This document shows positions 14,898 to 40,501 of a DNA stretch of 42,865 nucleotides, piece by piece. Every line of letters begins with the position of its first letter. Position 1 is the stretch's first letter. A program made the translations under genes and the position numbers. Under the pieces are notes generated by a model. It saw nothing but the letters and a program-made list of their open reading frames with translations, did not search any database and was not told the DNA's origin. Source of the stretch: Marivivens sp. (GTDB taxonomy: Bacteria > Pseudomonadota > Alphaproteobacteria > Rhodobacterales > Rhodobacteraceae); contig JAHEBR010000001.1 of assembly GCA_024642185.1 (NCBI GenBank), positions 1-42,865 of the forward strand, read 5' to 3'.

Positions 14898-15362
14898 ATG
14901 CAGCTTTCGGACATTCTGAAGCCCACTGGGGTCAAGGTCATTTCGATCGCCTCCAGCAAGAAGAGGCTTTTCCATGACCTTGGGGAAATCGCTGCGGCGA
15001 ACTATGGCCTGAGCGAACAGACCGTCATCGACGCGCTGATCGAACGCGAAAACCTGGGACCAACCGGAGTGGGGCAGGGCGTCGCGCTGCCCCATGCACG
15101 CCTGCAAGGCGTCGAAAAGATCTGTGGCATCTTCCTCAAACTGGAAAAGCCGATGGACTTTGACGCCGTTGATCGCCAGCCCGTCGATATTGTCTTTGCC
15201 CTGTTTGCGCCCGAGACGGCCGGTGTCGATCATCTCAAGGCGCTGGCTCTTGTTTCCAGAACGCTTCGTGATCCGGCAGTCTGTGCCAAGCTTCGCGCCA
15301 ACCATGATGCCGCGACGCTCCATACCATCCTGACAGAGGCGCCGACGACTCAGGCCGCCTGA
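14898..15362 (+). CDS. ptsN: PTS IIA-like nitrogen regulatory protein PtsN (EIIA-Ntr)
   Basis: 154 aa with the phosphorylatable His context (GVALPHARL). It occupies the canonical position after hpf. Confidence 0.85.
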   Translation: MQLSDILKPTGVKVISIASSKKRLFHDLGEIAAANYGLSEQTVIDALIERENLGPTGVGQGVALPHARLQGVEKICGIFLKLEKPMDFDAVDRQPVDIVFALFAPETAGVDHLKALALVSRTLRDPAVCAKLRANHDAATLHTILTEAPTTQAA

Positions 15363-16777
15363 CCGCCCCAATCGCCAAATCCAAATCCGACATAGTCGCG
15401 CTGGTAGGCAGCGCGCGCTGCGGCTTCGATTTCAGCGTCATAGATGGAGCGAAGGCGGGCATCTTCGGGGTCGACCGCCTCGCTGAACGGCGCCAGATCC
15501 AGCCCGACTTCACCTGCAAGGAATCCAAGTCCCTCGGCCAAACGCCCCCGCCGCAGGATCACATCTGGTGACCCAAACCCGGCAAATCCCTGAATGAGGG
15601 CCGTTTGGGTCGCCCAGGACGGGTCGACACGAATGCCTGTCTGCCCGCCGAGGTTGGCCTTTAGAAATTTGAGAAAGGCCAGAAAGGCAGCACGATGCGC
15701 GGCGGTGTCGTAGGTGTCGTCCGGTGCTCTTTTTGGCAGCGGCACAGCGAAATGTTTGCGAAGAGATTCGCGGATTTCGCCAAAGGTGCCCGGCCCGACC
15801 GAGAGAATATGGGAGCAAAACGCCGAATGCGCGCGCGCAACCGGATGGCCGAGAACTGTAAAGCTTCGATGCGCTGGGGTCTTGCGCAGCCACTGGCGCA
15901 GCGTCTTTTGGGTCAGATCCTCTTCGAGGCCCGATCCGCCTCCAAGGCTCGCAAGCCAACCTCGGACATCCTCATCTCTCGTTCCTTTGAGCGGCAGATA
16001 AAGCAGCGGCGCCCCTTTTGACGCGACATAGCTCGGAATGGCGGGCCCGCGACGCGGCTCGAAATTCGGGGTGCGAGAGAGGTTGAAGCGGTCAAGTGCT
16101 GCGAGCGCCCTATCCATATCTTCGAAGTTGGATACCTTGTCTTCTAGCGGCTCCGGGTTCTGCTTTTTGAGCTCTCTGTCGAGCCCCTCGATCCGCTCCT
16201 CTGCCCCAAGCCAGGCTGCAAGTCCGTTGATAACCTCGGCGTCCTGCAAATCCTCATAGTCGATATAGAAGGCCGTCTGACCACTGCGCTGCAAACTGTT
16301 GAGAAGAAGAACCTGAAAATCCTGAAGTTCGGCAAGGAAGGTCTCAAACTCGGCGGCCCTGAAGGTAATCCGCTCTGATTTCGCGTGTTTCGCTTTGGTC
16401 AGCTTCCATTGACCGGTCTCTCTGGCAATCTTCCAACTCACATAGCTTTCCGCGGGATTGCGGGTGAGGATGACCTTGGCACAGCGGGGATCGTCCAGGA
16501 TCGCGTCAAGCACGCGCGGATCGTGATCGTGGAAATAGCGAAAGCCACCAAGAACACCATTCTCGGATTTGATCGCACCGAGGAATTGGTGAGGATTCGC
16601 CTCGCGTAGGCCAAGATCAAACCCGAGGATCTCGGTTGCGTTGGGATAACCGACGAAATGCGGATTGAACGCCTCTCCATTACAGCGAAGCCCGGAAAAC
16701 GCATTGAGGTTGGCTTCAAGGAAATTCGAGCCGGTCCGCATTTCGGCGAAAATGACGAAATAATCGAAGCCTGCCAT
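15350..16777 (-). CDS. Two-domain sulfotransferase (NodH-like N-terminal domain + Sulfotransfer_2-like C-terminal domain)
   Basis: The N-terminal domain has PAPS 5'-PSB-like FAEMRTGSNFL and 3'-PB-like ILTRNPAESYVS motifs. The C-terminal domain has LPLKGTRDED and TVLGHPVARAHSAF, resembling the IPKTGGTS / VRNPxxRxxS motifs. Confidence 0.65.
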   Translation of the reverse strand: MAGFDYFVIFAEMRTGSNFLEANLNAFSGLRCNGEAFNPHFVGYPNATEILGFDLGLREANPHQFLGAIKSENGVLGGFRYFHDHDPRVLDAILDDPRCAKVILTRNPAESYVSWKIARETGQWKLTKAKHAKSERITFRAAEFETFLAELQDFQVLLLNSLQRSGQTAFYIDYEDLQDAEVINGLAAWLGAEERIEGLDRELKKQNPEPLEDKVSNFEDMDRALAALDRFNLSRTPNFEPRRGPAIPSYVASKGAPLLYLPLKGTRDEDVRGWLASLGGGSGLEEDLTQKTLRQWLRKTPAHRSFTVLGHPVARAHSAFCSHILSVGPGTFGEIRESLRKHFAVPLPKRAPDDTYDTAAHRAAFLAFLKFLKANLGGQTGIRVDPSWATQTALIQGFAGFGSPDVILRRGRLAEGLGFLAGEVGLDLAPFSEAVDPEDARLRSIYDAEIEAAARAAYQRDYVGFGFGDWGGQAA

Positions 16778-16780
16778 ATC

Positions 16781-18478
16781 CTAACGCACCAGATAGGGTC
16801 GGCGCGCTTTCGGGCGCGCGTTTTGTGGGGCGGGATCGACCGGGAAATCACCCATAAGATACGGATGCATCCCCTGGTTCTTGAGGTTTTGCAGGAACTG
16901 TCCAAAACCGCTCAGATCGATGATGCGGGGCGCCTCTGCAAGCCGCCGGCCACCAGCGACCGAGATCTCGTCGATCACGGTTTGCAGGGCCTCCATCGGT
17001 GACTCGATGAACTCTGCAAGCGACCAAATGCGGATCTTTGCCTTGGCGTGTATCGACCGAAGATGATCGAGATGATCGCTTTCGATCTTCTGCAGGCGGG
17101 CCGCTTCAAGGCGCAGGTCTACGAAATTGCGGTTCGACTGAAAAAGTGGGATCGCCCAAGCGCCGGTTATGACAGATATCTGAGCATTCGGATCATAGGC
17201 GATATCGGATCCAACCGCCTGATTGTCGGCCGGGCCAAACTGGAAACACTGCCGCTCGCCGCGCGTATTCCAGATAAGGCTCGTCAGAAAGGCTTTGGGG
17301 TTATAATCGCGCAGGGTGCTACTGTCCGACAAGGCACCGGCGAAAGTGGTCTGGCGCCCATCAAACTCGACCCGGTCAGGCGCATAAAGATGACCGTGAA
17401 CCCTTGTCCCTGTCGCACGGGCGAGCCAAGGTTCGAAATTTTCGAATAGTTCTGAGAAGCCTTCAAACACAGAGTATGGCGCAGCGGTCACACCATTTTC
17501 CCAGCCCCAGTTGGGAAACCGCCCCTGCATAAAAAGGCCCGAACGGCCGCGAATTCGCCGATCGACGGCTCGGGAAAAGATCCTGTCAATCTTGCCGGGG
17601 TTTGGCTCTGACGCTTTCATTGCGGCGGCGTTGTCGCCCAGAAAGGTCTCATAGAGCTTGTCGGCCCGTGGCCAGATCTTGCGGGCAACAAAGCAATCGG
17701 ATCGCCGCAAAAGCTGCAGGTGGTCCTCGTAAAAGATGTGTGGCTTACCCTGAAAATCGAACTTTGAAAGTGTAAGCGACCGGCTTTCGATATGCGTCGA
17801 ATACAGGCGGGCGAGCGTTTGATAATAGCTCTCGTCCGGAATCCAGACCTTGCTGAAATAGCGGTCATAAGTCTCGCGTTCCGGATCCTGCAGGATCGCA
17901 GAAAGCGTCTGTCGCGTGAGGCACCACCACTGCGATCCCATATGCGGCACAAGCCCGGCGGGGATCTTGCGCCGAACGCCGAGCCGGCGTTGAAGGGCCA
18001 CGTATTTGTCAAAGAGGTATCTCTGTCGCTTCCATGAGAAGGGGAACCGGAGGGTGAACCTCTCCTCATCAAGGCCGCCGATCGTCCAAGGTACATCGGC
18101 CGTCGTCGCGCTTTCGATGAAATCCGTGCGCGGGCGCTTGGCAAGATAACTCACAAGCTCGCTCACGGGCCTCAGGGGAAGACAAGAGCCAGAAGCTAGA
18201 TAGACATGGCGAACTTCGGGATAGGTCTCGAGCATCAGCTGCGAGGCATCCTGAGACGCGGCAACGAGCCCCCAAGTCCCCCATTCACAGCGATGCCGTT
18301 TGGAAAACCGAACGTTCGAAAGGCCATCGAACCGCGAAACGAATGCATCATGTCTCTCGTCGTCAACATTCTTGTCGACGTGAACAACGACCGGGCACCC
18401 TCCGGCGATCCAGTGACGTATTACCTGCTCGGCACGTTCGAGCGAGGTATGAACAAGCATGACGATCCCGACAGTCAT
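16781..18478 (-). CDS. GT14 / Core-2-I-branching-enzyme-like glycosyltransferase with long uncharacterised C-terminal extension
   Basis: The N-terminal ~275 aa matches the Branch-family pattern (IVMLVHT..., HVDKN, CEWGTWGLV, GSQWWCLTR). The remaining ~290 aa has no motif I recognise. Its start has an ATGA overlap with the upstream GT. Confidence 0.6.
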   Translation of the reverse strand: MTVGIVMLVHTSLERAEQVIRHWIAGGCPVVVHVDKNVDDERHDAFVSRFDGLSNVRFSKRHRCEWGTWGLVAASQDASQLMLETYPEVRHVYLASGSCLPLRPVSELVSYLAKRPRTDFIESATTADVPWTIGGLDEERFTLRFPFSWKRQRYLFDKYVALQRRLGVRRKIPAGLVPHMGSQWWCLTRQTLSAILQDPERETYDRYFSKVWIPDESYYQTLARLYSTHIESRSLTLSKFDFQGKPHIFYEDHLQLLRRSDCFVARKIWPRADKLYETFLGDNAAAMKASEPNPGKIDRIFSRAVDRRIRGRSGLFMQGRFPNWGWENGVTAAPYSVFEGFSELFENFEPWLARATGTRVHGHLYAPDRVEFDGRQTTFAGALSDSSTLRDYNPKAFLTSLIWNTRGERQCFQFGPADNQAVGSDIAYDPNAQISVITGAWAIPLFQSNRNFVDLRLEAARLQKIESDHLDHLRSIHAKAKIRIWSLAEFIESPMEALQTVIDEISVAGGRRLAEAPRIIDLSGFGQFLQNLKNQGMHPYLMGDFPVDPAPQNARPKARRPYLVR

Positions 18479-19485
18479 GCCCAGTTGCCTTTCGACATGA
18501 GGCCGAGAATTTCAAGCTGGCGCCAGTTGATGTATTTCTCCGACCACTTGCACCAAATCTCTTCGCGCCGCTCAAAGCCTTCGACATAGGCCTTGTATTC
18601 CTTGCTGTTCGCAAAATGCTGCTTTCGCTCCAGCTCCTCCCTCGCCTTCTCGGTTACGCTTTGGAGAAACTTGGCGTGCAAGAGCGCCCCGCTCACTTTC
18701 TCGCCGCCCCATTCGTCGTAAACAAGGTTAAGGCCGCGCGGCAGAAGCATATGCGTTGAGTGCACATAGGTGAACCGGCGATCCCACTTGACCAGTGGAA
18801 TCTTGTTGAGGGCCGGCGCGCGCTCCGGCTCGTCGCGGAAGAAAACCCGCGCCCGTGGACCGCCCTGTATCCAAAGATTCCCGAACTTGTGGTTTCTCGA
18901 GATCGTGTAGTTTCCGGAGTCAAACCACGGCGCCACCTCGAACGGATCCTGGCCCCGCTCATACTCTGCGCTTTCTATCGGCCCCTTGGGATACATATCG
19001 ATCAGCATCGTCCCGAACGAGCGGATCGATGAGGCGTCGAGCCAGTCGGTGAGCGCCTTGAGGGGGCGGGTATCGCAGAAGGGGTAGACGAGAAACTCGT
19101 CGGGATCGACGACCAGCGTCCAGTGACCGTGAGCGTATTTCCTCTGGAGCCAGGTGATCCAATCCATCCCGAACCGAGCTCGCTTGTAGCTCGCGCTCGT
19201 CCGCCAGAGTGAGACATCCGGCTGGCGGGCAAGGTATTCAGCGCCGCCATCGTCGCTATCATTGTCGACCAGCAGAAAATGCCGGACCCCAAGATCGCGG
19301 TAGTATTTCAGGAAATAGGGAAGGCGGATATCTTCGTTGCGGATCGTCGAAAACAACAAGATATCGTCTGGCTCGATCTGCTCGGTGCGATCCACGAACA
19401 GAGAAAGCTCTCTGCGCTTGCGAAGCGACCGAATCCGCCACCTCTTGCGTTGCAGTCTCAGTCGATATGACTGCCAGAAGCCCAA
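18475..19485 (-). CDS. Glycosyltransferase family 2-like protein (Glyco_tranf_2_4 / PF13704-like)
   Basis: The sequence ILLFSTIRNEDIRLPYFLKYYRDLGVRHFLLVDNDSDDG, followed by DPDEF (DxD-like), is typical of this family. 336 aa. Confidence 0.6.
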   Translation of the reverse strand: MGFWQSYRLRLQRKRWRIRSLRKRRELSLFVDRTEQIEPDDILLFSTIRNEDIRLPYFLKYYRDLGVRHFLLVDNDSDDGGAEYLARQPDVSLWRTSASYKRARFGMDWITWLQRKYAHGHWTLVVDPDEFLVYPFCDTRPLKALTDWLDASSIRSFGTMLIDMYPKGPIESAEYERGQDPFEVAPWFDSGNYTISRNHKFGNLWIQGGPRARVFFRDEPERAPALNKIPLVKWDRRFTYVHSTHMLLPRGLNLVYDEWGGEKVSGALLHAKFLQSVTEKAREELERKQHFANSKEYKAYVEGFERREEIWCKWSEKYINWRQLEILGLMSKGNWA

Positions 19486-19532
19486 ACTTGTTCCTGCTCG
19501 TTATTGTGGCTTTGCCAATGTGTTCGCCGGTA

Positions 19533-20690
19533 TCATGTCACAGTAAAGACGATCTTGAAATGCGCCTCCCAGCCCGGAGACTCAAATGCTTGTGAGTCAT
19601 GTTCCGGTGGCGATTGTTCATGGGCCTTTATTGCTTCAATCCAAGAATAGGGATCGGCAACATCAAGGTAAACCGCCCTGTTGCCCAAGATCTCGCGCAC
19701 GGAAGGAAGATCATTGGCAATGACCGGCACCCCAAGGGCGGCAGCCTCGACGGGCGGAAGGCCGAAACCCTCGGCGAGCGATGGAAAAAGGAGCGCCCTG
19801 GCGCCCGAAAGCAGAGCCGCGAGCGCCGCATCCGATAGGCCGGCAAGCTCGGTCACGTTTGCAGCACCGGCATCTAGCCGCCCAAAGACATCCTCACAGC
19901 CCCAACCGCGGCTGCCACATATGAAAAGCTGAGGCGCCTTGCTATCCATATCGCCCCAGAGATCGAGCAGAAAGCCGATGTTCTTGCGCGGTTCGATGGT
20001 TCCTATGGCGACGAAGTAGGGGCGGCTGGTGTTCAGGTCGGGAGGAAGGGCTGCAACATCGGGCGGCACAACCTCGGCGCCGATCGGAGCGGTCAAAATC
20101 GGCGGGACACGGCCAAACTTCCCAAGATGATATTCCACCCTTTCTCGAGCCGCTCCGGAGATGCAGACGACTTGATCCGCAAGGCGCGCCACACGGCGCA
20201 TACGCCGACCAAATTCTTTGGCCCGCCCCTTCTTTTGCAGCTGAGGAAAATCGAGCGGGATCATGTCATGCAATAGGATGGTCGCCGTGCCACCGTTGGT
20301 GGACTTCACCGCAAGAAGAACCCGCCGCGTCAGATTGCTGTGGCCGACGTTGAGATAGGCCAGACCGGCGGGAAAACGCCGCCGGAGCAGCCAGCCAAGC
20401 AACGATCGGGGGCATCTCGCGAAAGCAACCGCTCGAGCACGATCAATGCACTCCGCTTGCGAAGCTCCGCTCTCAACCGCTGCCAACAGGGCCGCTGCCC
20501 CCTGCGCATCGAGCAGAAGATAGCCAAGTCGCGTCCGTATCAAACCGTAGAAAGGCAAGCCAAGTGTCAGAAGCTCTCGCAGATAGGCCAGTTCGACACG
20601 ATCAATGCCCGATGGCACCCGACCCGCCCGCGCCACTGTGCGCGACAGATCGAGCAGCCGGACTTTGGAGCTATTTTTCGTAGTGCCCAC
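19533..20690 (-). CDS. Glycosyltransferase family 4 (GT-B, RfaB-like)
   Basis: The C-terminal EX7E region (FPSLAEGFGLPPVEAAALGVPVIAND) is present. The start is uncertain: the GTG at 20690 overlaps the galE end by 20 nt, while the listed ATGs at 20825 and 20801 would overlap galE by more than 130 nt. Confidence 0.7.
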   Translation of the reverse strand: MGTTKNSSKVRLLDLSRTVARAGRVPSGIDRVELAYLRELLTLGLPFYGLIRTRLGYLLLDAQGAAALLAAVESGASQAECIDRARAVAFARCPRSLLGWLLRRRFPAGLAYLNVGHSNLTRRVLLAVKSTNGGTATILLHDMIPLDFPQLQKKGRAKEFGRRMRRVARLADQVVCISGAARERVEYHLGKFGRVPPILTAPIGAEVVPPDVAALPPDLNTSRPYFVAIGTIEPRKNIGFLLDLWGDMDSKAPQLFICGSRGWGCEDVFGRLDAGAANVTELAGLSDAALAALLSGARALLFPSLAEGFGLPPVEAAALGVPVIANDLPSVREILGNRAVYLDVADPYSWIEAIKAHEQSPPEHDSQAFESPGWEAHFKIVFTVT

Positions 20691-21654
20691 TCTGATGCCA
20701 CCGCCATGCGTCGGAGACCATCGTAGCGAGATCGGATCTCCTCGGCGACCATCCAAGCTCTTCGACGGCGCGTGCGCTCCCTGAAACGAGCATCGCTGCA
20801 TCACCCGGTCTACGCGGCTTCTCAACCACTGGCACCGTAAGGTTCGTAACGGCGCCCGATTTGGCGATTACCTCGCGCACGGAAAAGCCTGTGCCCGTTC
20901 CGAGATTGAACACGCGGCTGCCTTTGCCTGCTTCGAGCCACTTCACGCCAAGTATATGCGCGTCGACCAGATCGGATACATGAACATAGTCGCGGATGCA
21001 GGTGCCATCGGGTGTGGGGTAATCCGTGCCAAATAGCGAGAGCGCCTCGCGCTGGCCGGAAATTACCTCGAGCAGTACCGGCACCAAATGGGTTTCGGGG
21101 CGGTGGCATTCGCCAATTTCGCCCTCTGGATCAGATCCGGCAACATTGAAATACCGAAAGATCACCGACCGAAGGCTGTGGCTCGCTCCGAAATTTGCAA
21201 GGATGTCCTCCACCGCCCGCTTTGACGCACCATAGGCATTGATCGGTTGCTGAACGGAATTTTCGTCAAGAACCACCCCGTCCTGATCACCATAGGTCGC
21301 ACAGGTGGACGAGAACACAAAATCGAGACAACCCGCCGCTACAGCGGCTTCGGCAAGGTTGAGCGAGCCAAGAACATTGTTCCGCCAATAAAGAGCGGGG
21401 TTCTCCATGCTTTCACCCACAAGGCTCAGCGCGGCAAAGTGCATGACAGCCGAGGGGCGGTATTTGCGGAAAACCTCGTCGAGACGGGCGCGATCCAAAA
21501 GATCACCCTTCTCAAAAGGCCCAAACCGCACAGCGTCTTGCCATCCGGTCACAAGACTATCGTAGGCTACGGGGGTGTAGCCCGCGGCTCGCAGCGCCTT
21601 GCAGGCATGCGAGCCGATATAGCCCGCGCCACCCGTGACCAGTATCGTTTTCAA
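20671..21654 (-). CDS. galE: UDP-glucose 4-epimerase
   Basis: The Rossmann motif ILVTGGAGYIGSH and catalytic YGASK are present. There is no ATG near the conserved N-terminus. The TTG at 21654 gives (M)KTILVTGGAGY and a typical 327 aa product. The rest of the listed ORF overlaps galU. Confidence 0.85.
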   Translation of the reverse strand: MKTILVTGGAGYIGSHACKALRAAGYTPVAYDSLVTGWQDAVRFGPFEKGDLLDRARLDEVFRKYRPSAVMHFAALSLVGESMENPALYWRNNVLGSLNLAEAAVAAGCLDFVFSSTCATYGDQDGVVLDENSVQQPINAYGASKRAVEDILANFGASHSLRSVIFRYFNVAGSDPEGEIGECHRPETHLVPVLLEVISGQREALSLFGTDYPTPDGTCIRDYVHVSDLVDAHILGVKWLEAGKGSRVFNLGTGTGFSVREVIAKSGAVTNLTVPVVEKPRRPGDAAMLVSGSARAVEELGWSPRRSDLATMVSDAWRWHQSGHYEK

Positions 21655-21677
21655 ATCAGTGCCTGTCTGGGGCAGCC

Positions 21678-22571
21678 CTACTGGGCCGCGTTGCGCATCG
21701 AAACCAGCTCGGTCAGATACTGCGAGAACTCCTCGCGCAGCTCTGGACGGGCCAAGCCAAAGGCCACGGTCGCCTGAAGAAACCCAGCCTTCGAACCACA
21801 ATCAAACCGCTGACCGCGGAATCGGTAGCCAAAGACATCGCGCCCCTGCTCCATCTCGGCCGCGATGGCGTCGGTCAGCTGAAGCTCGCCGGCGGCGCCG
21901 CGATTGATCTTGCCAAGGTTCTGCATGATTTTCGGAGAAAGGATATAGCGGCCGATTACGGCTAGGCTCGACGGAGCGGTTCCAGCGGCCGGCTTTTCGA
22001 CCATGCCAGAGACCTTCACGAGCGAGCCCATGTCTTCCTTCACATCGAGAATGCCGTATGCCGATGTCTGTTCTTTCGGAACCTCCATCGCCGCAACCAT
22101 AGAGCCGCCGGTTTCGGCATAGGCCTCGACCATTTGCTGAAGGCAGGGCTTTTCCGCGGCAATCACATCGTCCGGCAAAATGACCGCGAAAGGCTCGTTG
22201 CCGATCAGGCGCCGGGCGCACCAGACCGCATGGCCAAGGCCCAAAGGCTTGTGCTGGCGGATATAGGCGATCGCCCCGCTATCCATGTTGGTCGATTTCA
22301 GGATTTCGAGCAGTTCTTCCTTGCCGGCACGACGGAGCGAAGCCTCAAGTTCGGGCGCGGAATCGAAATAGTCTTCGAGAGCGGATTTTCCACGGGCAGT
22401 GACAAATATGAAATCCCGAATGCCCGCGGCACGGGCCTCGTCGATCGCATACTGGATCAGCGGCCGGTCAACGAGCGTCATGATTTCTTTGGGGATCGCC
22501 TTGGTCGCTGGCAAAAACCGTGTTCCAAGCCCTGCGACCGGGAAAATCGCTTTGGTGATCCGTTTGGACAT
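21678..22571 (-). CDS. galU: UTP--glucose-1-phosphate uridylyltransferase
   Basis: The [23 protein letters not shown] motif and VEKP motif are present. 297 aa. Confidence 0.9.
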   Translation of the reverse strand: [297 protein letters not shown]

Positions 22572-22621
22572 GACTTACCCTTCAACCTGCACCGGCATTA
22601 TGTGCACAGAAAATCCCGCGT

Positions 22622-22649
22622 TCTATAGCACCTAAACTATTGAATACAA
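22622..22649 (-). promoter_or_regulatory. Possible sigma70-type promoter for galU-galE-GT operon in an AT-rich spacer (TTGTAT-N16-TATAGA on minus strand)
   Basis: The 94-nt spacer at 22572-22665 is clearly AT-richer than its surroundings. The hexamers were read on the minus strand. An 8-bp palindrome TGTGCACA at 22601-22608 lies in the predicted 5'UTR. Confidence 0.3.
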
Positions 22650-22665
22650 ATAGGGCACAATAATG

Positions 22666-23916
22666 TCATATGAGGGTTTTTGTTCGCTTAAATCCGCTGT
22701 TTTCGTCTCGAAGCCGCTCCTCGCGCTTCACCCTTTCTGAGCGCTTCCAATATTTGAATATCGGGTCCGTACGAAGTGAGCGGCCAAAAAGCCCGCCCCG
22801 CTGCTCCCAGTAGCCCTTTGGATCAAAGTGGCGGCGATGATAGAGAGAGGTCAGGGAAAAGGCGTAGACCGTCGCCCGATGTCCGTCGGCGACCGCCTTC
22901 CTCGCCCTGCGCCGTAGCTGGCCCAGACGGCCCAGCCAGCCCCAGATCACCTCGTGCCCGGCCCCTGCTCCGATCCGTGGAATGAACCTGGCAAAGGTCG
23001 GGTTCTCCGAAAAATCTGGTTGTGGCCCCTCCAAAGCTGCGGACCCCACCCATCCCTGATCAAAGCTTCGCAGAACGGGCTCCACAGCCGTAGGCAGGAT
23101 CCGCCCCGCAACCATATGCCCCAACAGCGCAGCGCGGTATTTCCCGCGCTCTGAACGCCGTACTGGTTCGGGATCAAGCCCTTCCCGATGACGCCGCACA
23201 AACCGCGCCAAGCTTGCACCAACGGGGGCAAGATCTCGCGGCGCCCGGTCGGCTTGCCTTCGGTCGCTCATCGCAAAGCCGTGATGGACCCGCGCCCGCG
23301 GCACGATCGCCGTTCTGGTGCCTTGCTCGGCGAGCCGCATATTCAGATCCGTTTCATCGAGGTAATAGGCGTAGCCCGGATCAAACCCGCCCAGCTTGAT
23401 CAACAGGCTCCGCCGAAAAGCCATGTTTGTTCCTTCGGTTTTGATGCCCCTGCCCGCGCTGCCGGTCAGGATCGTCTCCTCGTTTGGATCAACGCTGATT
23501 TCTCGCGCAGTTGCATCGGCAAGGACTTCACGGGCGGTCCACTGGAATGAGAGTCCGTTGCGCCCAAAGACGAACCCACCCGCCGCATCCGCGCGCCCCT
23601 CGGTGATCGGCGCGGTCAGCCGACGGAGCCAGTCATGTTCGGCTACGGCATCGTCGTCGATGAACGAAACCACCGGCGCAGCCGCTGCAGAGATGCCCTT
23701 ATTCCTTGCAACCGAGATATTTGCCTCATCAAAGCGGATAACTTTGACCCTGCCCGCCCAACCCATATGCTCCACCGCCGCGACACCATCGGCATCAGCC
23801 ACGACAACGATCTCGAATTCGGGATGATCCTGCTGATCGAGGCCAACGAGACAGCGCCTGAGCAATGCGGGGCGGCCGCGGCTCACGATGACGACGCTGG
23901 CGGCCTCCGGCGTCAA
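22666..23916 (-). CDS. Glycosyltransferase family 2 with ~190-aa uncharacterised C-terminal region
   Basis: The GT-A start SVVIVSRGRPALLRRCL and the DxD-like sequences VVVADAD and IDDD are present. The proposed TTG start at 23916 overlaps the kdsB TGA (TTGA). The listed start at 24090 would overlap kdsB by 178 nt. Confidence 0.65.
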   Translation of the reverse strand: MTPEAASVVIVSRGRPALLRRCLVGLDQQDHPEFEIVVVADADGVAAVEHMGWAGRVKVIRFDEANISVARNKGISAAAAPVVSFIDDDAVAEHDWLRRLTAPITEGRADAAGGFVFGRNGLSFQWTAREVLADATAREISVDPNEETILTGSAGRGIKTEGTNMAFRRSLLIKLGGFDPGYAYYLDETDLNMRLAEQGTRTAIVPRARVHHGFAMSDRRQADRAPRDLAPVGASLARFVRRHREGLDPEPVRRSERGKYRAALLGHMVAGRILPTAVEPVLRSFDQGWVGSAALEGPQPDFSENPTFARFIPRIGAGAGHEVIWGWLGRLGQLRRRARKAVADGHRATVYAFSLTSLYHRRHFDPKGYWEQRGGLFGRSLRTDPIFKYWKRSERVKREERLRDENSGFKRTKTLI

Positions 23917-24713
23917 GACGCCCCCATCCGCGCGAGCATCGCCTCGATAACAGCAACATCCTCGGGGTTGTTCAGCTCCCAAAACTCGCGGCCCTTGGCC
24001 TCGACCTCGACACAGAGAACCGCGGCCCCCTGTTCGAGAAACCGCAGCTGCTCGAGCCCCTCGGCCCCCTCCAGCGGACCCATCGGCCACGAGGGATAGG
24101 CGGCCAGAGCCTCGGCGCGATAGGCATAGACGCCCACATGATGAAATACCGGCGTCGCCGCCGCATCAGGATAGGCGTTGCTGGTGTGCGGCACCACTTC
24201 CTTGGAGAAATAGAGCGCAATGGCATTGCGGTCGAACACCGCCGTCGTGCCACCGATCCGCCCCTCGCGCCGGTCGTTCACCAGCCGCGCCAGCGCCGCG
24301 CCTTCGGTGCGAAGCACGGGGGTTGCCACCTTGGCAGTGGGATGCCCCGCAAGGCCGCTCACGAGGTCTTCGATAAACCACGGCGGGGTGAGCGCCGCGT
24401 CGCCCTGAAGATTGACGATGATCTCATGGCCGCCGCCCAGCGCGGCATGGGCTTCGGCGCAGCGCTCGGTGCCGTTGCGCCAGGCCGACGAGGTCATCAC
24501 CACCTCGGCGCCGAAGCCAATGGCCTCTTGCCGGATTCGCTCGTCGTCGGTCGCCACGACCACACGGGTATCGCCGCCAACCTGCATCGCCGCATCCCAT
24601 GTCCGCCGGATCAGCGACTTAGCCTCGCCCTCCACCCCGCGAAGGCCGACGAGCGGCTTGCCCGGATAGCGGGTCGAGGCATAGCGGGCCGGAATGACGA
24701 TGAGCGCGGTCAT
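23913..24713 (-). CDS. kdsB: 3-deoxy-manno-octulosonate cytidylyltransferase (CMP-Kdo synthetase)
   Basis: MTALIVIPARYASTRYPGKPL is the typical KdsB N-terminus. The ATG at 24713 shares one nt with the cysQ stop (TGATG). 266 aa. Confidence 0.85.
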   Translation of the reverse strand: MTALIVIPARYASTRYPGKPLVGLRGVEGEAKSLIRRTWDAAMQVGGDTRVVVATDDERIRQEAIGFGAEVVMTSSAWRNGTERCAEAHAALGGGHEIIVNLQGDAALTPPWFIEDLVSGLAGHPTAKVATPVLRTEGAALARLVNDRREGRIGGTTAVFDRNAIALYFSKEVVPHTSNAYPDAAATPVFHHVGVYAYRAEALAAYPSWPMGPLEGAEGLEQLRFLEQGAAVLCVEVEAKGREFWELNNPEDVAVIEAMLARMGAS

Positions 24714-25510
24714 CAGGCTTTCTTCAATTCGACGCCCGGCGCATAGGCGATGAAAAACGGGTTGGCGAAGCCCTCTTTGCCATAGCGCAGCGGCTGGTGG
24801 GTATCGAAGTGCACCACGTCGCCGCCCGCGCCCACCAGAACGGCATGGCCGGCGGCCGTGTCCCACTCCATCGTCCGGCCTACGCGGGGATAAAGGTCGG
24901 CCTCGCCGGTCGCTACGAGGCAGAACTTGAGCGATGAACCGGCGCTCTTCATATCCTTAACCGCATATTTCGAGATATAGTCGTCGGTGGCCTGATCGCG
25001 GTGGGATTTCGAGGCAACAACCAAGAGCGCGGCATTGTTTGGCTTTGAAACGCGAATGCGGTTCTGCTGACCGGGTGTCTCCTTGTCGAACGGCCCATCT
25101 TCCTCGACGGCATTGCCGCCAGCATCGGTATAGAAAAGCCGCCCCTTGGCGGGCGCGTAGACAACACCGCGCACCGGCGAGCCATCAAATACCAACGCGA
25201 TGTTCACGGTGAAATCGCCGCGCCGCTGGACGAATTCCTTGGTTCCGTCAAGAGGATCAACGATGAGAAAGGTCTTGGCCTCGATATCATGCGAGGCGGC
25301 CTGCTCTTCGGTCACAAGTGGAAGCTCGGGGAATTCCGCGCGCAAACCCGCCGAAATGATCGCATCCGCCGCTTCGTCGGCTTCGGTCACCGGGCTCTGG
25401 TCGCTCTTGGAGCGAACCTCGAAATCTTCGGCGGCATAGATCTCCATGATCTTGTCGCCCGCTTCCAGCGCAAGCCGGCGCATCACAAGTGTAAGTTTTT
25501 GAAGGTCCAT
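24713..25510 (-). CDS. cysQ: 3'(2'),5'-bisphosphate nucleotidase (PAP phosphatase), inositol monophosphatase family
   Basis: The motifs IVDPLDGTKEF and EWDTAAGHAV are present. The start at 25510 (MDLQKLTLVMRRLA) gives 265 aa. The listed upstream extension is unsupported. Confidence 0.8.
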   Translation of the reverse strand: MDLQKLTLVMRRLALEAGDKIMEIYAAEDFEVRSKSDQSPVTEADEAADAIISAGLRAEFPELPLVTEEQAASHDIEAKTFLIVDPLDGTKEFVQRRGDFTVNIALVFDGSPVRGVVYAPAKGRLFYTDAGGNAVEEDGPFDKETPGQQNRIRVSKPNNAALLVVASKSHRDQATDDYISKYAVKDMKSAGSSLKFCLVATGEADLYPRVGRTMEWDTAAGHAVLVGAGGDVVHFDTHQPLRYGKEGFANPFFIAYAPGVELKKA

Positions 25511-25640
25511 GCGAAGGCTCCGTTGCGTCTTGCCGTCAGTGTTGAAATGAATGGGCCGCCTCCTTATGCTGGCGCGGAAGGCGAACGGCAAGAAATTCGT
25601 CATAAGGCACGGTCAGATCAGACCACGAGGGCAGCAGCCA

Positions 25641-26462
25641 ATGTTTCGGGCGACAACCACGAGATCAACCCTTTCGATCGCCTTTGGCATGATCGAGTTG
25701 ATCTATCACAGCATCGTTCGGAATATTCGATCAGGACATCGCAACGCGGTTGTAGGGCTTGTTCTTATCGCTCTGCAGGGCGCGCTGATGACCTTGATGT
25801 TCTTTATGGTCTTTCAGGTCCTTGGTCTCAGGACAGCCAAGATCCGAGGGGATTTTCTCCTCTACTTGATGTCCGGCGTCTTTCTATACATGACCCATAA
25901 CCGCACCGTTTCGGCGGTAATGGGGGCACCCTCTGCCACATCTTCGATGTTGCAGCATGCGCCCCTCAACTCCTTCATTACCGTCAGCTCCGCAGCGATT
26001 GCCGCGCTCTATCAGCAGGTGCTGTCGCTGGGCATAATCCTTTTTGGCTACCACGCCCTTTTCACACCTATCACCATCGACAAACCCGTCGGCGCGCTCG
26101 GTGCGCTGTTGATGGCTTGGTTGTCCGGCGTGGCTGTCGGACTCATCTTTCTGGCGGTCAAGCCTTGGGCGCCACGGCTCGTTCCTATTCTGAGGATGGT
26201 CTATCTCAGAGCCAACATGATCACATCGGGCAAGATGTTCGTTGCCAATACCTTGCCCGGCTCTCTCCTCACCATCTTCAGTTGGAACCCGCTGTTTCAC
26301 TCGGTAGATCAAGCCCGCGGCTATATCTTCATCAACTATACCCCGCATTTCACCTCGATGACCTATCCGCTCTATCTTTCGCTGACATTGCTGGTCATCG
26401 GCCTGATGCTCGAATTCTTTACCCGGCAGCGGGCTTCGGCGAGCTGGGGCGCTGGCGTCTGA
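25641..26462 (+). CDS. ABC-2 type polysaccharide export permease (KpsM/CtrC-like)
   Basis: About 6 TM segments and the conserved WNPLFHSVDQAR motif (compare KpsM WNPLVHVVELSR). The ATG at 25641 with a GAGGG RBS gives 273 aa. No ATPase partner gene is adjacent. Confidence 0.7.
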   Translation: MFRATTTRSTLSIAFGMIELIYHSIVRNIRSGHRNAVVGLVLIALQGALMTLMFFMVFQVLGLRTAKIRGDFLLYLMSGVFLYMTHNRTVSAVMGAPSATSSMLQHAPLNSFITVSSAAIAALYQQVLSLGIILFGYHALFTPITIDKPVGALGALLMAWLSGVAVGLIFLAVKPWAPRLVPILRMVYLRANMITSGKMFVANTLPGSLLTIFSWNPLFHSVDQARGYIFINYTPHFTSMTYPLYLSLTLLVIGLMLEFFTRQRASASWGAGV

Positions 26463-26599: not shown

Positions 26600-26700
26600 C
26601 CGCTTGATCAGCAGGGAATGCCCCTGCCTCCTCATCCACAAAGGCCAAGGTGCCTACGGGGCCAAGGCCGCTCAAACCGCCTAGCGAAAGGGTTTTGAAA

Positions 26701-28599
<1,899 letters not shown>

Positions 28600-28621
28600 G
28601 GCCGACAACTAGCTACGGCAG

Positions 28622-30636: not shown

Positions 30637-31623
30637 CTATCGGGCGGCGACAGCCATCGACTGATACATGGCCCCAAGCGCGAGGATGTCTCCGCTGGCA
30701 TCGCACCCCGGCATTGTGACAACCAGATCATTTGCCACAGCCCTTTCGCCCGGCAGGATCTGAAGGCTCTGTGCGCTTGCCTCGCGACCACAGTTTTCAG
30801 CCGTCACAGGGATCTCGACCGAAAGCTCGATCTCGCCCGTCGCTGGCGATGCTCCGATTGGAAAAGTATAGATCTGGGCAAAATGGCCGCCTGCGATGGC
30901 GCGCTGACCGAGGGCTGTGAATGTTCCGGCGCCTGCGGTCGGCGCCTCCTGCCAGACATAGCCCGGCGCTCCGAATGGGGCAGCAAATTCCCTTGCGTGC
31001 AGCTGAGCACCAACGGCGCCCTCCCACATCAGCGCCGCGCGGCCAAAGAGATCAAAGTCCAAGACCTGTGCGACAGCCATCGCGCTCGGGCCAATATCAA
31101 ACGACAGAACGAATACGGCGGTCTTTGCCAAAGCCGGGATCGAAAGATCCGCACTGCCCTTTTCGTCAGTCAGGCCCGAAACCATCATGCCTTGGTGGTG
31201 CAAGACAAAGCTCGCGCTGGGCAGGCACGGTGCGTTCAGCGCAAGATCGACCTTGGCGCCCTCGACAGGCACGGCGATCAGCTCTGGAACGCAGTCTGTC
31301 GCCGATTCCGCACCCGGAAGAAGATCGAATTCGATCGAGGCAAGCCGCCGCGGCTCTAGCCTGTCTGTCCTCTCGAAACTTTCGGGAAGGGCAAGGCCAA
31401 TCCCTGCGCTGACAATCTCTGGGGCGATCAAGATCGGACCAAACCTTGGGTCGCGCGCCTTCTCCGGGCTCAATTCGGGCAGGGGCGAGAAGGCAAAGGG
31501 CTCACCGCCGGAATTTTTCCCGACAAGGCTGGCCCCGGCGCCCGAATATTGAATGACGATTGCGCCAGCAAGCAACACCGCGAAGGTGGCTCCAGCGACG
31601 GCAAATTTTCTGATCGCGATCAT
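30637..31623 (-). CDS. Hypothetical exported/membrane-anchored protein
   Basis: The ATG at 31623 has a GGAG RBS 6 nt upstream; the listed start at 31635 is a TTG. An N-terminal hydrophobic anchor (IAIRKFAVAGATFAVLLAGAIVI) and four Cys residues in the mature part are present. I recognise no family motif. Confidence 0.55.
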   Translation of the reverse strand: MIAIRKFAVAGATFAVLLAGAIVIQYSGAGASLVGKNSGGEPFAFSPLPELSPEKARDPRFGPILIAPEIVSAGIGLALPESFERTDRLEPRRLASIEFDLLPGAESATDCVPELIAVPVEGAKVDLALNAPCLPSASFVLHHQGMMVSGLTDEKGSADLSIPALAKTAVFVLSFDIGPSAMAVAQVLDFDLFGRAALMWEGAVGAQLHAREFAAPFGAPGYVWQEAPTAGAGTFTALGQRAIAGGHFAQIYTFPIGASPATGEIELSVEIPVTAENCGREASAQSLQILPGERAVANDLVVTMPGCDASGDILALGAMYQSMAVAAR

Positions 31624-31726
31624 CAGTTGCTCCAAACCCGTTAGGGATTTGGAAACAAACTCACTTAGAATCGCGACCTGTTGAGGACACCGAGACGGAT
31701 TCTTTCAGGCCCAATTCGGGCAGGGA

Positions 31727-34447
<2,721 letters not shown>

Positions 34448-34632
34448 ATTCTCTCCGCGCCCGCGTCTCCGGGCCAGTTGTTGCCGTTGAATGAGGAGGT
34501 CGCTTGTCGCCCCCGGACCTAAGGCCTAAACAGGGGTCTGTGTGGCCCCCTCGGAGCCTTAATGGGATGTAAGGGGCAGGCTATGGAGTGTCAACGCCGC
34601 GCGGCCTGCGCGGGCGTCAAGGGGAGCGAAAC

Positions 34633-37360: not shown

Positions 37361-37390
37361 GGCCAGCCCTCAGGCTGGCCTTTTGTTGTT
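37361..37390. terminator. Bidirectional intrinsic terminator between the small ORF and infB
   Basis: The hairpin is GGCCAGCC-ctca-GGCTGGCC, followed by TTTTGTTGTT on the plus strand and by TCTTTCTTTCC on the minus strand. It lies 4 nt beyond the infB stop. Confidence 0.7.
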
Positions 37391-37394
37391 TCTA

Positions 37395-39872: not shown

Positions 39873-40501
39873 CTAGCTACTTTTTCCTTTCCGGCAGCAG
39901 GATCGCCACCGTCATTTGCGCGCAAGCCCTTAAGCTTTGCGGCTTCCTCTACAACACGGTTGCTGAGTCCGCCAGTCGCGAGCGCGCCATGTATCACACT
40001 TTGGCGTCCAAATGCCAAACCCAATTCCTGAGCGGTCAGGCAGTCGAAATAACGGGCCCCTTCAGGGGTCCAAAGCTTGGCCTTGCCGCGCGAGGAGCCG
40101 TCGTCAGCCTGCAACAGAACCCGGACGTTTTCGTTTCCGGCAAGCCAGCTTTTCACCTTCTCGAACCCGCAGACCGCGATCCCGGCCTTCCGGGCCATGG
40201 CGAGCAGGTCGATCACGCGGCGGGCAATCTGGCGCTCCACCTCGTCGGCCAAACCCTCCGGCACGGTGACCGGCGTCTTGGCCGAGCGAGAGAACTGGCC
40301 CTTGCCAGCCTTCTCGAGGATCGCGCGATCGGCGGTGACCCACATCCCGCGTCCGGGCAGCTTGCCCAGCACGTCAGGCACGACGACGCCGTCAGGGCCG
40401 ACCACGAACCGGATCAACCCTTCTTTCGGCTTGGCCTCGCCGGTGACTATGCACCGGCGCTCGGCCTCGTCGTCTGTTTTATCGCGGCCACCGCGTGTCA
40501 T
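39869..40501 (-). CDS. YlxR (DUF448)-like RNA-binding protein fused to L7Ae-like domain
   Basis: The sequence RRCIVTGE...RFVVGPDG...PGRGMWV is typical of DUF448. It has an ATGA overlap with infB and the canonical position between nusA and infB. Confidence 0.8.

Follow-up and report, generated by a model that had tools for sequence, protein, structure and literature searches.

The window analyzed here, a 42,865-nucleotide stretch of a Marivivens sp. contig, carries between positions 15350 and 26462 nine minus-strand genes and one divergent permease gene, ten genes in all rather than the ten minus-strand genes and total of eleven counted in the original prediction. In the direction of transcription the minus-strand genes begin with cysQ (24713-25510, ATG start at 25510), encoding a 3'(2'),5'-bisphosphate nucleotidase (PAP phosphatase; TIGR01331, 271 bits against a cutoff of 229), followed by kdsB (CMP-Kdo synthetase, 23913-24713; NF003950, 327 bits against 234) and a GT2 glycosyltransferase gene (22666-23916, TTG start at 23916; Pfam Glycos_transf_2, E 2e-20). 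Beyond a gap at 22572-22665 lie galU (UTP-glucose-1-phosphate uridylyltransferase, 21678-22571; TIGR01099, 334 bits against 327), galE (UDP-glucose 4-epimerase, 20671-21654, TTG start at 21654; TIGR01179, 401 bits against 262), and a GT4 glycosyltransferase gene (19533 to about 20636; Pfam Glycos_transf_1, E 4e-16), the start of which is uncertain (GTG at 20636 or 20690). The last three are a PF13704 (Glyco_tranf_2_4, GT2_4) glycosyltransferase gene (18475-19485; Pfam E 1e-34), a gene assigned by Pfam to a GT14 (Branch) plus DUF5927 protein (16781-18478), and a gene encoding a 475-residue, two-domain sulfotransferase-like protein (15350-16777). The predicted GalU, GalE, KdsB, CysQ, four glycosyltransferases, sulfotransferase, and permease are thus all real. 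A hydrophobic-segment check of the nine minus-strand enzymes found no membrane segments.

Direct reading of the sequence bore out the junctions reported earlier: the kdsB ATG overlaps the cysQ stop (TGATG), the GT2 TTG start overlaps the kdsB stop (TTGA), the GT2_4 and GT14 genes overlap at ATGA, and 3 nt separate the GT14 and sulfotransferase genes. The GT2_4, GT14-DUF5927, and sulfotransferase genes are translationally coupled. An AT-rich gap of 94 nt, read from the sequence, separates GT2 from galU and is a possible internal promoter, so there may be two transcription units rather than one across the nine genes; a consensus promoter scan gave nothing above chance. One flank of the locus is lptC-lptA-lptB-hpf-ptsN and abuts it directly, as had been claimed, the convergent ptsN and sulfotransferase ends overlapping by 13 nt. 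The other flank is dnaK-dnaJ, with the permease gene directly preceding dnaK. The remainder of the window is housekeeping, and the window lacks Wzx/Wzy/Wzz, KpsT/E/D/C/S, priming transferase, and PAPS-synthesis genes, in agreement with the original prediction.

The KpsM/VexB-like ABC-2 permease gene (25641-26462, plus strand) is divergent from cysQ and encodes at least four strong hydrophobic segments. A Pfam search gave no match, and the matches to NCBIfam VexB (E 2e-18, 67 bits, cutoff 297) and KpsM (E 2e-10, 41 bits, cutoff 300) both fall below cutoff. The best PDB match was 8tsh, a KpsMT capsule-transporter structure, through its permease chain (E 5e-6). The gene is kept at the same position in 57 of 80 genome loci, and the permease is an orphan in that no ATPase gene was found nearby. 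Antisense to the 3' part of the gene is an Rfam Cis2_sRNA match (RF02645, 26207-26354, minus strand; 65 bits against a gathering score of 50), seen at the same position in four of seven other loci. The R. pomeroyi cis2 lies antisense to a gene annotated "ABC transporter, permease", SPO0040 (PMC4809877).

We fetched 160 related loci from Rhodobacterales genomes and metagenome contigs. The sulfotransferase and GT14 genes were present in all 160, usually between lptCAB-hpf-ptsN and dnaK, and the locus occurs in at least 598 GTDB species representatives. The R. pomeroyi ortholog of GT14 is SPO0035, and that of the sulfotransferase is presumably SPO0034. GT2_4 was found in 73 of the 80 genome loci (the absences are mostly truncated contigs), and these three genes are the invariant core. 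Synteny was kept in the 160 loci and the genes behave as one functional unit. Synteny persists in a lineage whose GT14 and sulfotransferase are ~36% identical to those of the window, and in one lineage the order from dnaK, permease, and cysQ through to sulfotransferase and ptsN is intact although its LptB is only 67% identical. Across genera the median identity of GT14 and GT2_4 is ~73%, on par with GalU or CysQ and unlike capsule or O-antigen enzymes, versus 44% for GT4 and 45% for GT2. Covariation of divergence was highest for sulfotransferase and GT14 among 45 gene pairs (Spearman 0.66). Most loci include kdsB and have cysQ adjacent. Six have the three core genes with no kdsB, galU, or cysQ nearby, and in Roseovarius sp. 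217 the core lies away from lptCAB, adjoining opgH-opgG-opgC. The ±8-10 kb flanks of the 160 loci held no gene set beyond the window's own. The arrangement had been called unusual, whereas it proves to be a fixed one.

Of the variable genes, GT2 and GT4 occur together in 52 loci, are replaced by a second GT2_4 paralog in 34, and show another pattern in 3, with swaps seen inside each of three genera (Marivivens, Sulfitobacter, Loktanella). The possible internal promoter falls between GT2, which is on its kdsB side, and GT4, which is on its galU side; since the two are gained and lost jointly from opposite sides, both halves of the locus are tied to one pathway. The genes kdsB, cysQ, galU, and galE are present as stated but probably also serve general housekeeping and are therefore a weaker clue to the product than was assumed. 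Note that CysQ additionally clears PAP from phosphopantetheinyl transfer.

The sulfotransferase assignment needed qualification. The window protein had no significant Pfam match (the best was Sulfotransfer_3, E 0.095, residues 9-49), but its relatives, a profile, and the predicted fold support the call. Among 24 relatives, PF03567 was matched by 20, PF00685 by 13, and PF13469 by 11, and a profile of the 24 matched PDB 9vki, "LPS sulfotransferase NodH", at E 2.5e-8 over residues 6-150. The predicted model (pLDDT 80.8) matches Stf0, TPST, and HS 3-OST folds, best of all Stf0 (1tex; E 1e-4, TM 0.57 on the target, 13-15% sequence identity). In 200 sequences the segments AEMRTGSNFLE and LTRNPxESYVS are invariant, with R14-T-G-S17 and R106-N-P..S111..S114 of the N-domain kept without exception, and these PSB and 3'PB motifs are retained in relatives only 31-37% identical; invariance of this kind would be difficult to account for in a protein with no catalytic role. 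The C-domain lacks the canonical PKxGG[ST] loop, its loop is variable in divergent lineages, and 71% of relatives have Ala in place of the 3'-phosphate-binding Ser. The PAPS-binding loops are thus kept only by the NodH-like domain at the N terminus (~1-230), the probable site of catalysis; the Sulfotransfer_2-like domain at the C terminus (~250-475) is probably degenerate.

Orthologs are publicly annotated "nodulation protein NodH", and NodH is recognized by an RxG motif of its PSB loop (PMC11625862). Like rhizobial NodH/LpsS/KpsS-type sulfotransferases (COG4424, "LPS sulfotransferase NodH"; PDB 9vki), the locus protein has an RxG-type 5'-phosphosulfate loop (MRTGS) and an RNP..S..S 3'-phosphate motif, and both types are soluble cytoplasmic enzymes, the rhizobial ones sulfating a glycan before export, as is predicted here. 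Unlike the NodH type, it has the second, apparently degenerate domain, falls under Pfam thresholds, is encoded always next to the GT14-DUF5927 gene, and is found not in symbiosis regions but in free-living marine bacteria, at a core chromosomal locus. Mycobacterial Stf0, the trehalose 2-sulfotransferase, is likewise soluble and sulfates a small sugar in the cytoplasm, but has a single domain, and its sulfolipid genes (pks2, papA, mmpL8) are missing from the locus.

The GT14 assignment is solid. Branch (~1-260) scored 70 bits against a Pfam cutoff of 23.4 and DUF5927 (266-565) 529 bits (E 3e-159); the top Foldseek matches were XylT1 and C2GnT-L (E ~2e-9), and a diverse profile matched XylT1 at 6e-15. 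The IPDE216 motif, of the PDE type that holds the catalytic Glu, is invariant. The enzyme shares Branch domain, fold, and this motif with eukaryotic xylosyltransferase 1 and core 2 beta-1,6-GlcNAc transferase, but it is cytoplasmic, with no hydrophobic segment or signal anchor, and is always fused to DUF5927. DUF5927 is a family of just 253 representative clusters, and our literature search found no paper mentioning the term. Among the members listed, every full-length protein (~540-575 residues) has DUF5927 C-terminal to residue ~265, the region that precedes it in the window protein being the Branch domain. DUF5927 bears a faint collinear resemblance to the sulfotransferase N-domain (hhalign E 0.012, probability 3.5%) without the N-domain motifs. 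DUF5927 and the degenerate C-domain probably bind the acceptor or hold the two enzymes together.

Given these enzymes, we tentatively favor, with less than even confidence, a model in which a short sulfated oligosaccharide is assembled stepwise in the cytoplasm on a lipid-linked acceptor that already exists, most simply lipid A-Kdo. GalU and GalE would provide UDP-Glc and UDP-Gal and KdsB CMP-Kdo, and the glycosyltransferases would add sugars singly to the pre-existing acceptor at the cytoplasmic face of the inner membrane, giving two glycan variants by way of GT2 plus GT4 or the alternative second PF13704 enzyme. GT14 would transfer a residue in beta linkage, its UDP-sugar donor most likely being that of GlcNAc or another that is ubiquitous, and the sulfotransferase N-domain would move sulfate from PAPS whose synthesis is encoded elsewhere in the genome, CysQ clearing the inhibitory PAP. 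The most economical acceptor would be lipid A-Kdo, as in core-oligosaccharide (LOS-type) assembly, with the product flipped by MsbA and carried by the neighboring Lpt machinery. Stepwise assembly on an existing acceptor could dispense with a priming phosphoglycosyltransferase, a flippase, a polymerase, and a chain-length regulator. Hence, of the earlier statement that assembly and export are unexplained, the absence of the standard genes stands, but nine soluble enzymes and an existing lipid-linked acceptor offer an ordinary candidate route.

The LPS-core reading is suggested because the locus adjoins lptCAB and mostly includes kdsB, and within the family a sulfated O-polysaccharide of Poseidonocella sedimentorum is cited in PMC9912281. 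Waa-type LPS core loci likewise have runs of soluble GT2/GT4-type transferases and nucleotide-sugar genes beside LPS genes (here kdsB and lptCAB), a conserved inner set beside variable outer transferases, and no primer, flippase, or polymerase; the roseobacter locus differs in lacking waaA, heptosyltransferases, and kinases and in having GT14 and the sulfotransferase. Several observations run against this reading. The LOS core of Loktanella rosea, the sole roseobacter LOS structure found in our literature search, consists of two Kdo and neuraminic acid with no hexose or sulfate (PMC3210612), although three Loktanella genomes have the locus, which argues against a lipid A-Kdo acceptor. Even by the standard of inner-core enzymes an identity of 73% between genera is high, six loci have the core alone, the Roseovarius sp. 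217 core sits beside opg genes, the KpsM-like permease is left without a role, PAPS synthesis genes were not seen in the window and may lie elsewhere in the genome, and the window sulfotransferase is below every Pfam threshold.

It is also conceivable, if on balance unlikely, that the locus is a mosaic in which housekeeping cysQ, kdsB, galU, and galE merely lie beside a self-contained GT2_4/GT14-DUF5927/sulfotransferase module acting on a conserved non-LPS acceptor such as a protein, a small-molecule glycoside, or an oligosaccharide that is periplasmic or secreted; the permease might export the product. Such a module would account for the cores that stand alone or beside opgHGC, and housekeeping-level conservation is more in keeping with a conserved acceptor than with a surface antigen. 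A protein O-xylosyltransferase is among the GT14 relatives, tyrosylprotein sulfotransferases and trehalose sulfotransferase Stf0 are among the fold matches of the sulfotransferase, and the L. rosea LOS, the second role of CysQ, and the 94-nt gap, which could split transcription units, point the same way. Against it, the joint swapping of GT2 and GT4 links both halves to one product, the whole dnaK-to-ptsN order survives even beside the divergent LptB, and no candidate acceptor gene (repeat protein or peptide precursor) was seen in the locus.

An ABC-transporter-dependent capsule or K-antigen, that is, a sulfated polysaccharide built on a Kdo-primed lipid and sent out through the KpsM-like permease with the help of KpsT, KpsE, KpsD, KpsC, and KpsS encoded elsewhere, is improbable. 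The permease has its best matches in the VexB/KpsM models and the 8tsh permease chain, and the kdsB copy recalls kpsU, a feature of group 2 capsule loci. In known capsule systems, however, the KpsT, E, D, C, and S genes cluster, and neither the window nor the ~8-10 kb around any of the 160 loci contained one, so the capsule proposed earlier, if of the KpsMT type, is poorly supported. Capsule glycosyltransferases are normally strain-variable, unlike the transferases here; a polymerizing or multidomain transferase is absent, and the permease scores lie far under the NCBIfam cutoffs. Known sulfated capsules do take the ABC-transporter route with CysQ and sulfotransferases, as in Cobetia marina (PMC11766843); Mesorhizobium loti KpsS is an example cited in PMC11625862. 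The C. marina KMM 1449 locus and group 2/3 kps loci share with ours a sulfotransferase, CysQ, several glycosyltransferases, Kdo metabolism, and a KpsM-like permease, but C. marina has kpsETMD, kpsSC, cysNC, cysD, and a sulfate permease in ~70 genes (PMC11766843), whereas the roseobacter locus has an orphan permease and enzymes conserved across genera rather than strain-specific.

Least probable is that no sulfation occurs and that the sulfotransferase-like protein is a pseudo-enzyme or uses another donor, its sole role being that of scaffold or acceptor-binding partner to GT14-DUF5927: its sub-threshold Pfam scores, its altered C-domain, the faint DUF5927 likeness (by which degenerate sulfotransferase-like folds may act structurally), and the lack of PAPS genes in the window would fit, but the N-domain motifs are invariant, NodH itself is recognized by the RxG motif (PMC11625862), and CysQ neighbors the locus genes in most loci.

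In favor of stepwise assembly on a lipid-linked acceptor, the conservation pattern resembles that of an inner (GT14, GT2_4) versus an outer (GT2, GT4) core. In the roseobacter group this glycan-assembly locus is lineage-wide and has a fixed chromosomal place, being part of the core genome rather than an accessory island.

The genes proposed in the original prediction were recovered by both the window open reading frame list and the profile searches, and direct reading of the sequence showed the four quoted junctions (cysQ/kdsB, kdsB/GT2, GT2_4/GT14, and GT14/sulfotransferase) to be correct. The count of ten minus-strand genes was in error, as nine genes run from 25510 down to 15350. In order these are cysQ, kdsB, GT2, galU, galE, GT4, the PF13704 glycosyltransferase GT2_4, the Branch/GT14-DUF5927 gene (16781-18478), and the gene for a 475-aa sulfotransferase-like protein (15350-16777). 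A KpsM/VexB-like ABC-2 permease gene (25641-26462, plus strand, probable start ATG 25641) is divergent from cysQ. The locus abuts the lptCAB-hpf-ptsN cluster as had been stated, with lptC-lptA-lptB-hpf-ptsN as one flank and dnaK-dnaJ as the other, and the remainder of the window is housekeeping (TRAP transporters, secA, argJ, and infB-nusA-rimP). A 94-nt AT-rich gap precedes galU and could split the nine genes into two transcription units. Scans for consensus promoters and terminators returned only chance-level matches, and thus we can only infer the operon boundaries. The possibility of a horizontally acquired island was rejected, as the GC content is barely below that of the flanks (0.56-0.61 versus 0.59-0.65) and synteny is lineage-wide.

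Several long reading frames lie in or near the flanks. A 658-aa reading frame antisense to dnaK (26632-28608, minus strand) matches PF10712 'NAD-specific glutamate dehydrogenase' (E 8e-176) and most likely represents a shadow frame of dnaK, not a true gene. Comparable long antisense reading frames without family matches lie opposite secA (31742-34522, plus strand) and infB (37383-40031, plus strand). A putative 332-aa reading frame between radC and secA (30637-31635, minus strand) is Ala/Gly-rich in composition, with hydrophobic segments near the N terminus, and lacks a Pfam match.

In a scan of GTDB species representatives, relatives of the sulfotransferase occurred in at least 598 genomes. 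From these, 80 loci were kept, and all their titles name either a roseobacter-group genus or a Rhodobacterales, Alphaproteobacteria, or Pseudomonadota metagenome-assembled genome. The sulfotransferase and GT14 genes are adjacent in all 80. GT2_4 is present in 73 of these loci, ptsN/lptB in about 75, galU in 60, cysQ in 57, and the permease gene in 57, many of the absences being due to truncated contigs. A further 80 metagenome loci, collected starting from the most divergent relatives of GT14-DUF5927, had the same gene order. The L081 locus (JQIA01000005.1) has the order dnaK-permease-cysQ-GT2-galU-GT4-GT2_4-GT14-sulfotransferase followed by ptsN-hpf-lptB-lptA-lptC; no kdsB match was found there. 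In this locus, identity to the window proteins has fallen together for GT14 and the sulfotransferase (36-37%), whereas GT2_4 (61%) and GalU (73%) stay higher; LptB and DnaK are at 67% and 83%, respectively. Across genera the median identities to the window proteins were 79% for LptB, 76% for GalU, 75% for CysQ, 73% for both GT14 and GT2_4, 69% for Hpf, 66% for KdsB, 59% for the sulfotransferase, 53% for the permease, 45% for GT2, and 44% for GT4. The locus belongs to the core of the lineage rather than being an accessory island; complete genomes that have it include NZ_CP123584, NZ_CP166251, and NZ_OZ255712. This agrees with published comparative genomics (PMC8319176), in which nine roseobacters, R. 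pomeroyi and P. inhibens among them, have the GT14 ortholog group and Dinoroseobacter shibae and Stappia lack it. The same pattern, present in all nine roseobacters and in neither D. shibae nor Stappia, is shared by that group (SPO0035), the Kdo transferase group SPO3444, and the 'bacterial sugar transferase' group SPO0838 (PMC8319176 Table 2), although with just 11 genomes phylogeny alone may produce it.

The window protein fails the HMM thresholds for a sulfotransferase, but the assignment of the last gene as one held up on its relatives, a profile match, its predicted fold, and invariant motifs. The best Pfam match was Sulfotransfer_3 (PF13469; E 0.095 over 40 residues, 13.4 bits versus a cutoff of 27) and an NCBIfam scan gave no match. 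As these direct scans were unusable, identification went via the more than 5,000 relatives given by a database search, which are annotated 'nodulation protein NodH', 'LPS sulfotransferase NodH', or 'sulfotransferase family 2 domain-containing'. When matches with E values up to 0.1 were counted in 24 aligned relatives, PF03567 was found in 20, PF00685 in 13, and PF13469 in 11. The profile of the relatives matched PDB entry 9vki, 'LPS sulfotransferase NodH', with an E value of 2.5e-8 over residues 6-150. Using the AlphaFold model (pLDDT 80.8), the top 19 Foldseek matches in the PDB were all sulfotransferases, the rest being mostly sulfotransferases alongside nucleotide kinases; the best were Stf0, TPST, and HS 3-OST (E 1e-4 to 5e-3).

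The protein has two domains that differ in the state of their motifs. In the N-terminal domain (residues ~1-230), A-E-M-R-T-G-S-N-F-L-E is invariant in 200 relatives and L-T-R106-N-P-x-E-S111-Y-V-S114 is invariant or nearly so; both are also kept in relatives having 31-37% identity. These correspond to the 5'-phosphosulfate loop (RxG[ST] type, after strand 1) and 3'-phosphate motif (R..P....S), and the RxG motif is the hallmark by which NodH is recognized (PMC11625862). The C-terminal domain (residues ~250-475) is similar to Sulfotransfer_2, though degenerate in appearance. In close relatives the loop is P-x-[RK]-[SG]-G-P instead of the canonical PKxGG[ST] of PF03567, and in divergent relatives it is unconserved (PINDYGK, PITHDPN, and PVAGGPV). 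In its RxPxxRxxS motif the R-H-P-x-x-R part is kept, but the phosphate-binding Ser is replaced by Ala in 71% of the sequences. Judged by these motifs, PAPS-dependent sulfotransferase activity is probable for the N-terminal domain and improbable for the C-terminal domain.

The GT14 assignment held firmly, with a Branch score of 70 bits (gathering score 23.4) over residues 31-241 and agreement of fold and profile. The top 18 Foldseek matches of the GT-A domain were XylT1 and C2GnT-L (E 2e-9 to 5e-8; rmsd 3.4-6.2 over ~245 columns), and a profile from A3, the diverse alignment of the family, matched XylT1 at 6e-15 and C2GnT at 1e-6 in the PDB. The I213-P-D215-E216 segment is invariant in A3 and in a second alignment, A2. 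It aligns with 'PAES' of XylT1, and its Glu is the predicted catalytic residue of the P-[DA]-E motif. The protein lacks a membrane anchor. Because the alignment was shallow the model is of low quality overall (mean pLDDT 57), with values of ~70-93 over residues 1-120, lower values beyond, and values below 50 over most of DUF5927. This is a small family (253 representative clusters among 1.84 billion), and among the full-length members listed (~540-575 aa) the domain always lies C-terminal to residue ~265, after the Branch position in the window protein. The A3 profile gave no PDB match to DUF5927. In an hhalign comparison DUF5927 (residues ~350-480; 16781-17683, minus strand) was collinear with residues 22-169 of the sulfotransferase N-terminal domain over 126 columns, pairing HG-LF-P with HGEAFNP, RD..P..FL with READP.RL, and DPNA with DPRCAK, at an E value of 0.012 and a probability of 3.5%, which is weak support. 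PAPS-binding motifs are absent from DUF5927, and a possible sulfotransferase-like nature of the domain is kept as a lead rather than a finding. Searches of GT2_4, GT2, and GT4 against the PDB gave no match or generic matches only and no clue to the acceptor.

How might these enzymes act together? None of the nine has a membrane segment. Genes for polysaccharide export, priming, or PAPS synthesis are absent from the window, as originally noted, and Pfam families of priming phosphoglycosyltransferases, Wzx, Wzy, and Wzz were found in no window reading frame. The lack of membrane segments, together with the lack of a primer, flippase, polymerase, or Kps export system near any of the loci, is characteristic of stepwise addition in the cytoplasm. 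Sugars would be added one by one onto an already existing acceptor, for which lipid A-Kdo is the simplest candidate since kdsB is inside the locus and lptCAB alongside. The product would be a core-oligosaccharide (LOS-type) glycan given a sulfate, and a conserved inner plus a variable outer set of transferases fits such a glycan. Soluble glycosyltransferases, an internal kdsB, and lptCAB adjoining in about 75 of 80 genomes are features shared with Waa-type LPS core assembly. A sulfated surface glycan from the family, the Poseidonocella sedimentorum O-polysaccharide, is cited in PMC9912281. We favor this sulfated LOS-type core model tentatively, at somewhat below even confidence. There are three main objections. 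The LOS core of Loktanella rosea, the sole roseobacter LOS structure found and from a strain whose genome is outside our comparison, consists of Kdo2 plus neuraminic acid and has neither hexose nor sulfate (PMC3210612). Moreover, GT14 and GT2_4 are conserved to a degree that is very high for enzymes of core-oligosaccharide synthesis, and the permease is left without a role.

The genes could instead be a mosaic in which housekeeping genes stand beside a three-gene module (GT2_4, GT14-DUF5927, and sulfotransferase) that acts on another conserved acceptor. Counter to a single pathway, the core genes stand without the others in six loci. A link between the locus halves comes from GT2, which sits between kdsB and galU, and GT4, which sits between galE and GT2_4. 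In 89 loci holding cysQ, galU, and the sulfotransferase gene, both were present in 52, whereas in 34 neither was present and a second PF13704 paralog took the place of GT4 (3 had other arrangements). This swap recurs inside Marivivens, Sulfitobacter, and Loktanella, and as GT2 and GT4 are replaced jointly from opposite halves of the locus, both halves are linked. Within the core, divergence of the sulfotransferase and GT14 from the window proteins gave a Spearman coefficient of 0.66; none of the other pairs among the 45 scored as high in this crude comparison, which is uncorrected for phylogeny. Such covariation may reflect a substrate in common or contact between the two proteins. On balance we consider the mosaic possible but rather unlikely.

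In Roseovarius sp. 217 (L026, 11518-16974) the core genes are not beside ptsN-lptBAC; an esterase gene, an opgH-like GT2/GT21 gene, opgG (MdoG), and opgC follow them, and senC-regB is upstream. This looks like a local rearrangement because the sister Roseovarius loci L036 and L053 keep ptsN(-lptBAC) downstream of the core genes, and a link to periplasmic glucans through opgHGC was dropped for the same reason.

The permease scored below cutoff with both the VexB (67 bits, cutoff 297) and KpsM (41 bits, cutoff 300) models, has multiple membrane segments, and matched the permease chain of PDB entry 8tsh (E 5e-6); dnaK directly follows its gene in related loci. Export of a Kps-type sulfated capsule with partner genes encoded elsewhere would give it a role, and among known sulfated capsules that of Cobetia marina, for example, joins kps genes, CysQ, and sulfotransferases (PMC11766843). 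However, KpsT, KpsE/KpsD, and KpsC/KpsS are missing from the locus and from the window as a whole, and such a capsule seems quite improbable. Antisense to the 3' part of the permease gene, positions 26207-26354 (minus strand) match Rfam RF02645 'Ruegeria cis2 sRNA' over its full length (65 bits). The match is at the same place in four related loci (L003, L040, L057, and L065) but not in L013, L081, or L104, and could partly be due to coding-sequence conservation. The cis2 RNA of R. pomeroyi lies antisense to SPO0040 'ABC transporter, permease' and has been validated by RT-qPCR (PMC4809877).

Two further readings are given very little credence. The core genes might form a roseobacter-specific machine that attaches a short glycan bearing sulfate to a single conserved acceptor other than LPS. 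This acceptor could be a protein serine, in which case the system might be a bacterial counterpart of the xylosyltransferase-initiated proteoglycan linker followed by sulfation, or it could be a secreted signaling oligosaccharide exported via the orphan NodJ/KpsM-like permease. DUF5927 and the putatively dead C-terminal domain would then be pseudo-sulfotransferase folds recruited for substrate handling. Finally, that the sulfotransferase-like protein is non-catalytic is highly unlikely, its failure to reach HMM thresholds being set against the invariant N-terminal motifs.

Each part of the locus belongs to a known kind: a NodH-like sulfotransferase, GT14, GT2, and GT4 enzymes, nucleotide-sugar enzymes, and an ABC-2 permease. 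Existing annotation is automatic throughout. The literature searched had no mention of DUF5927, and that on sulfotransferases and roseobacter genera had nothing on the locus; a Roseobacter phage-resistance study implicated other genes, and a GTA tailspike preprint gave no glycan chemistry. Three features are undescribed in these sources: that GT2_4, GT14-DUF5927, and the two-domain sulfotransferase form a fixed core, that this core is conserved at the level of housekeeping genes, and that it lies between lptCAB-hpf-ptsN and dnaK across the lineage. As orthologs are present in the genetically tractable R. pomeroyi (SPO0035 for GT14 and SPO0040 for the permease), the question is directly testable in model roseobacters and on present evidence the locus is worthwhile, if not mechanistically strange.

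Few marine heterotrophs are as abundant as the roseobacters, whose surfaces are involved in attachment to algae and particles, adsorption of phages and gene-transfer agents, and biofilm formation. If the preferred model of a sulfated LOS-type core is true, most of the lineage would have a sulfate-adding glycan pathway in its core genome, and with it a common envelope feature that is so far undescribed. Roseobacter sulfur metabolism would gain a PAPS-dependent branch, and there would be a first functional handle on DUF5927 and bacterial GT14 enzymes.
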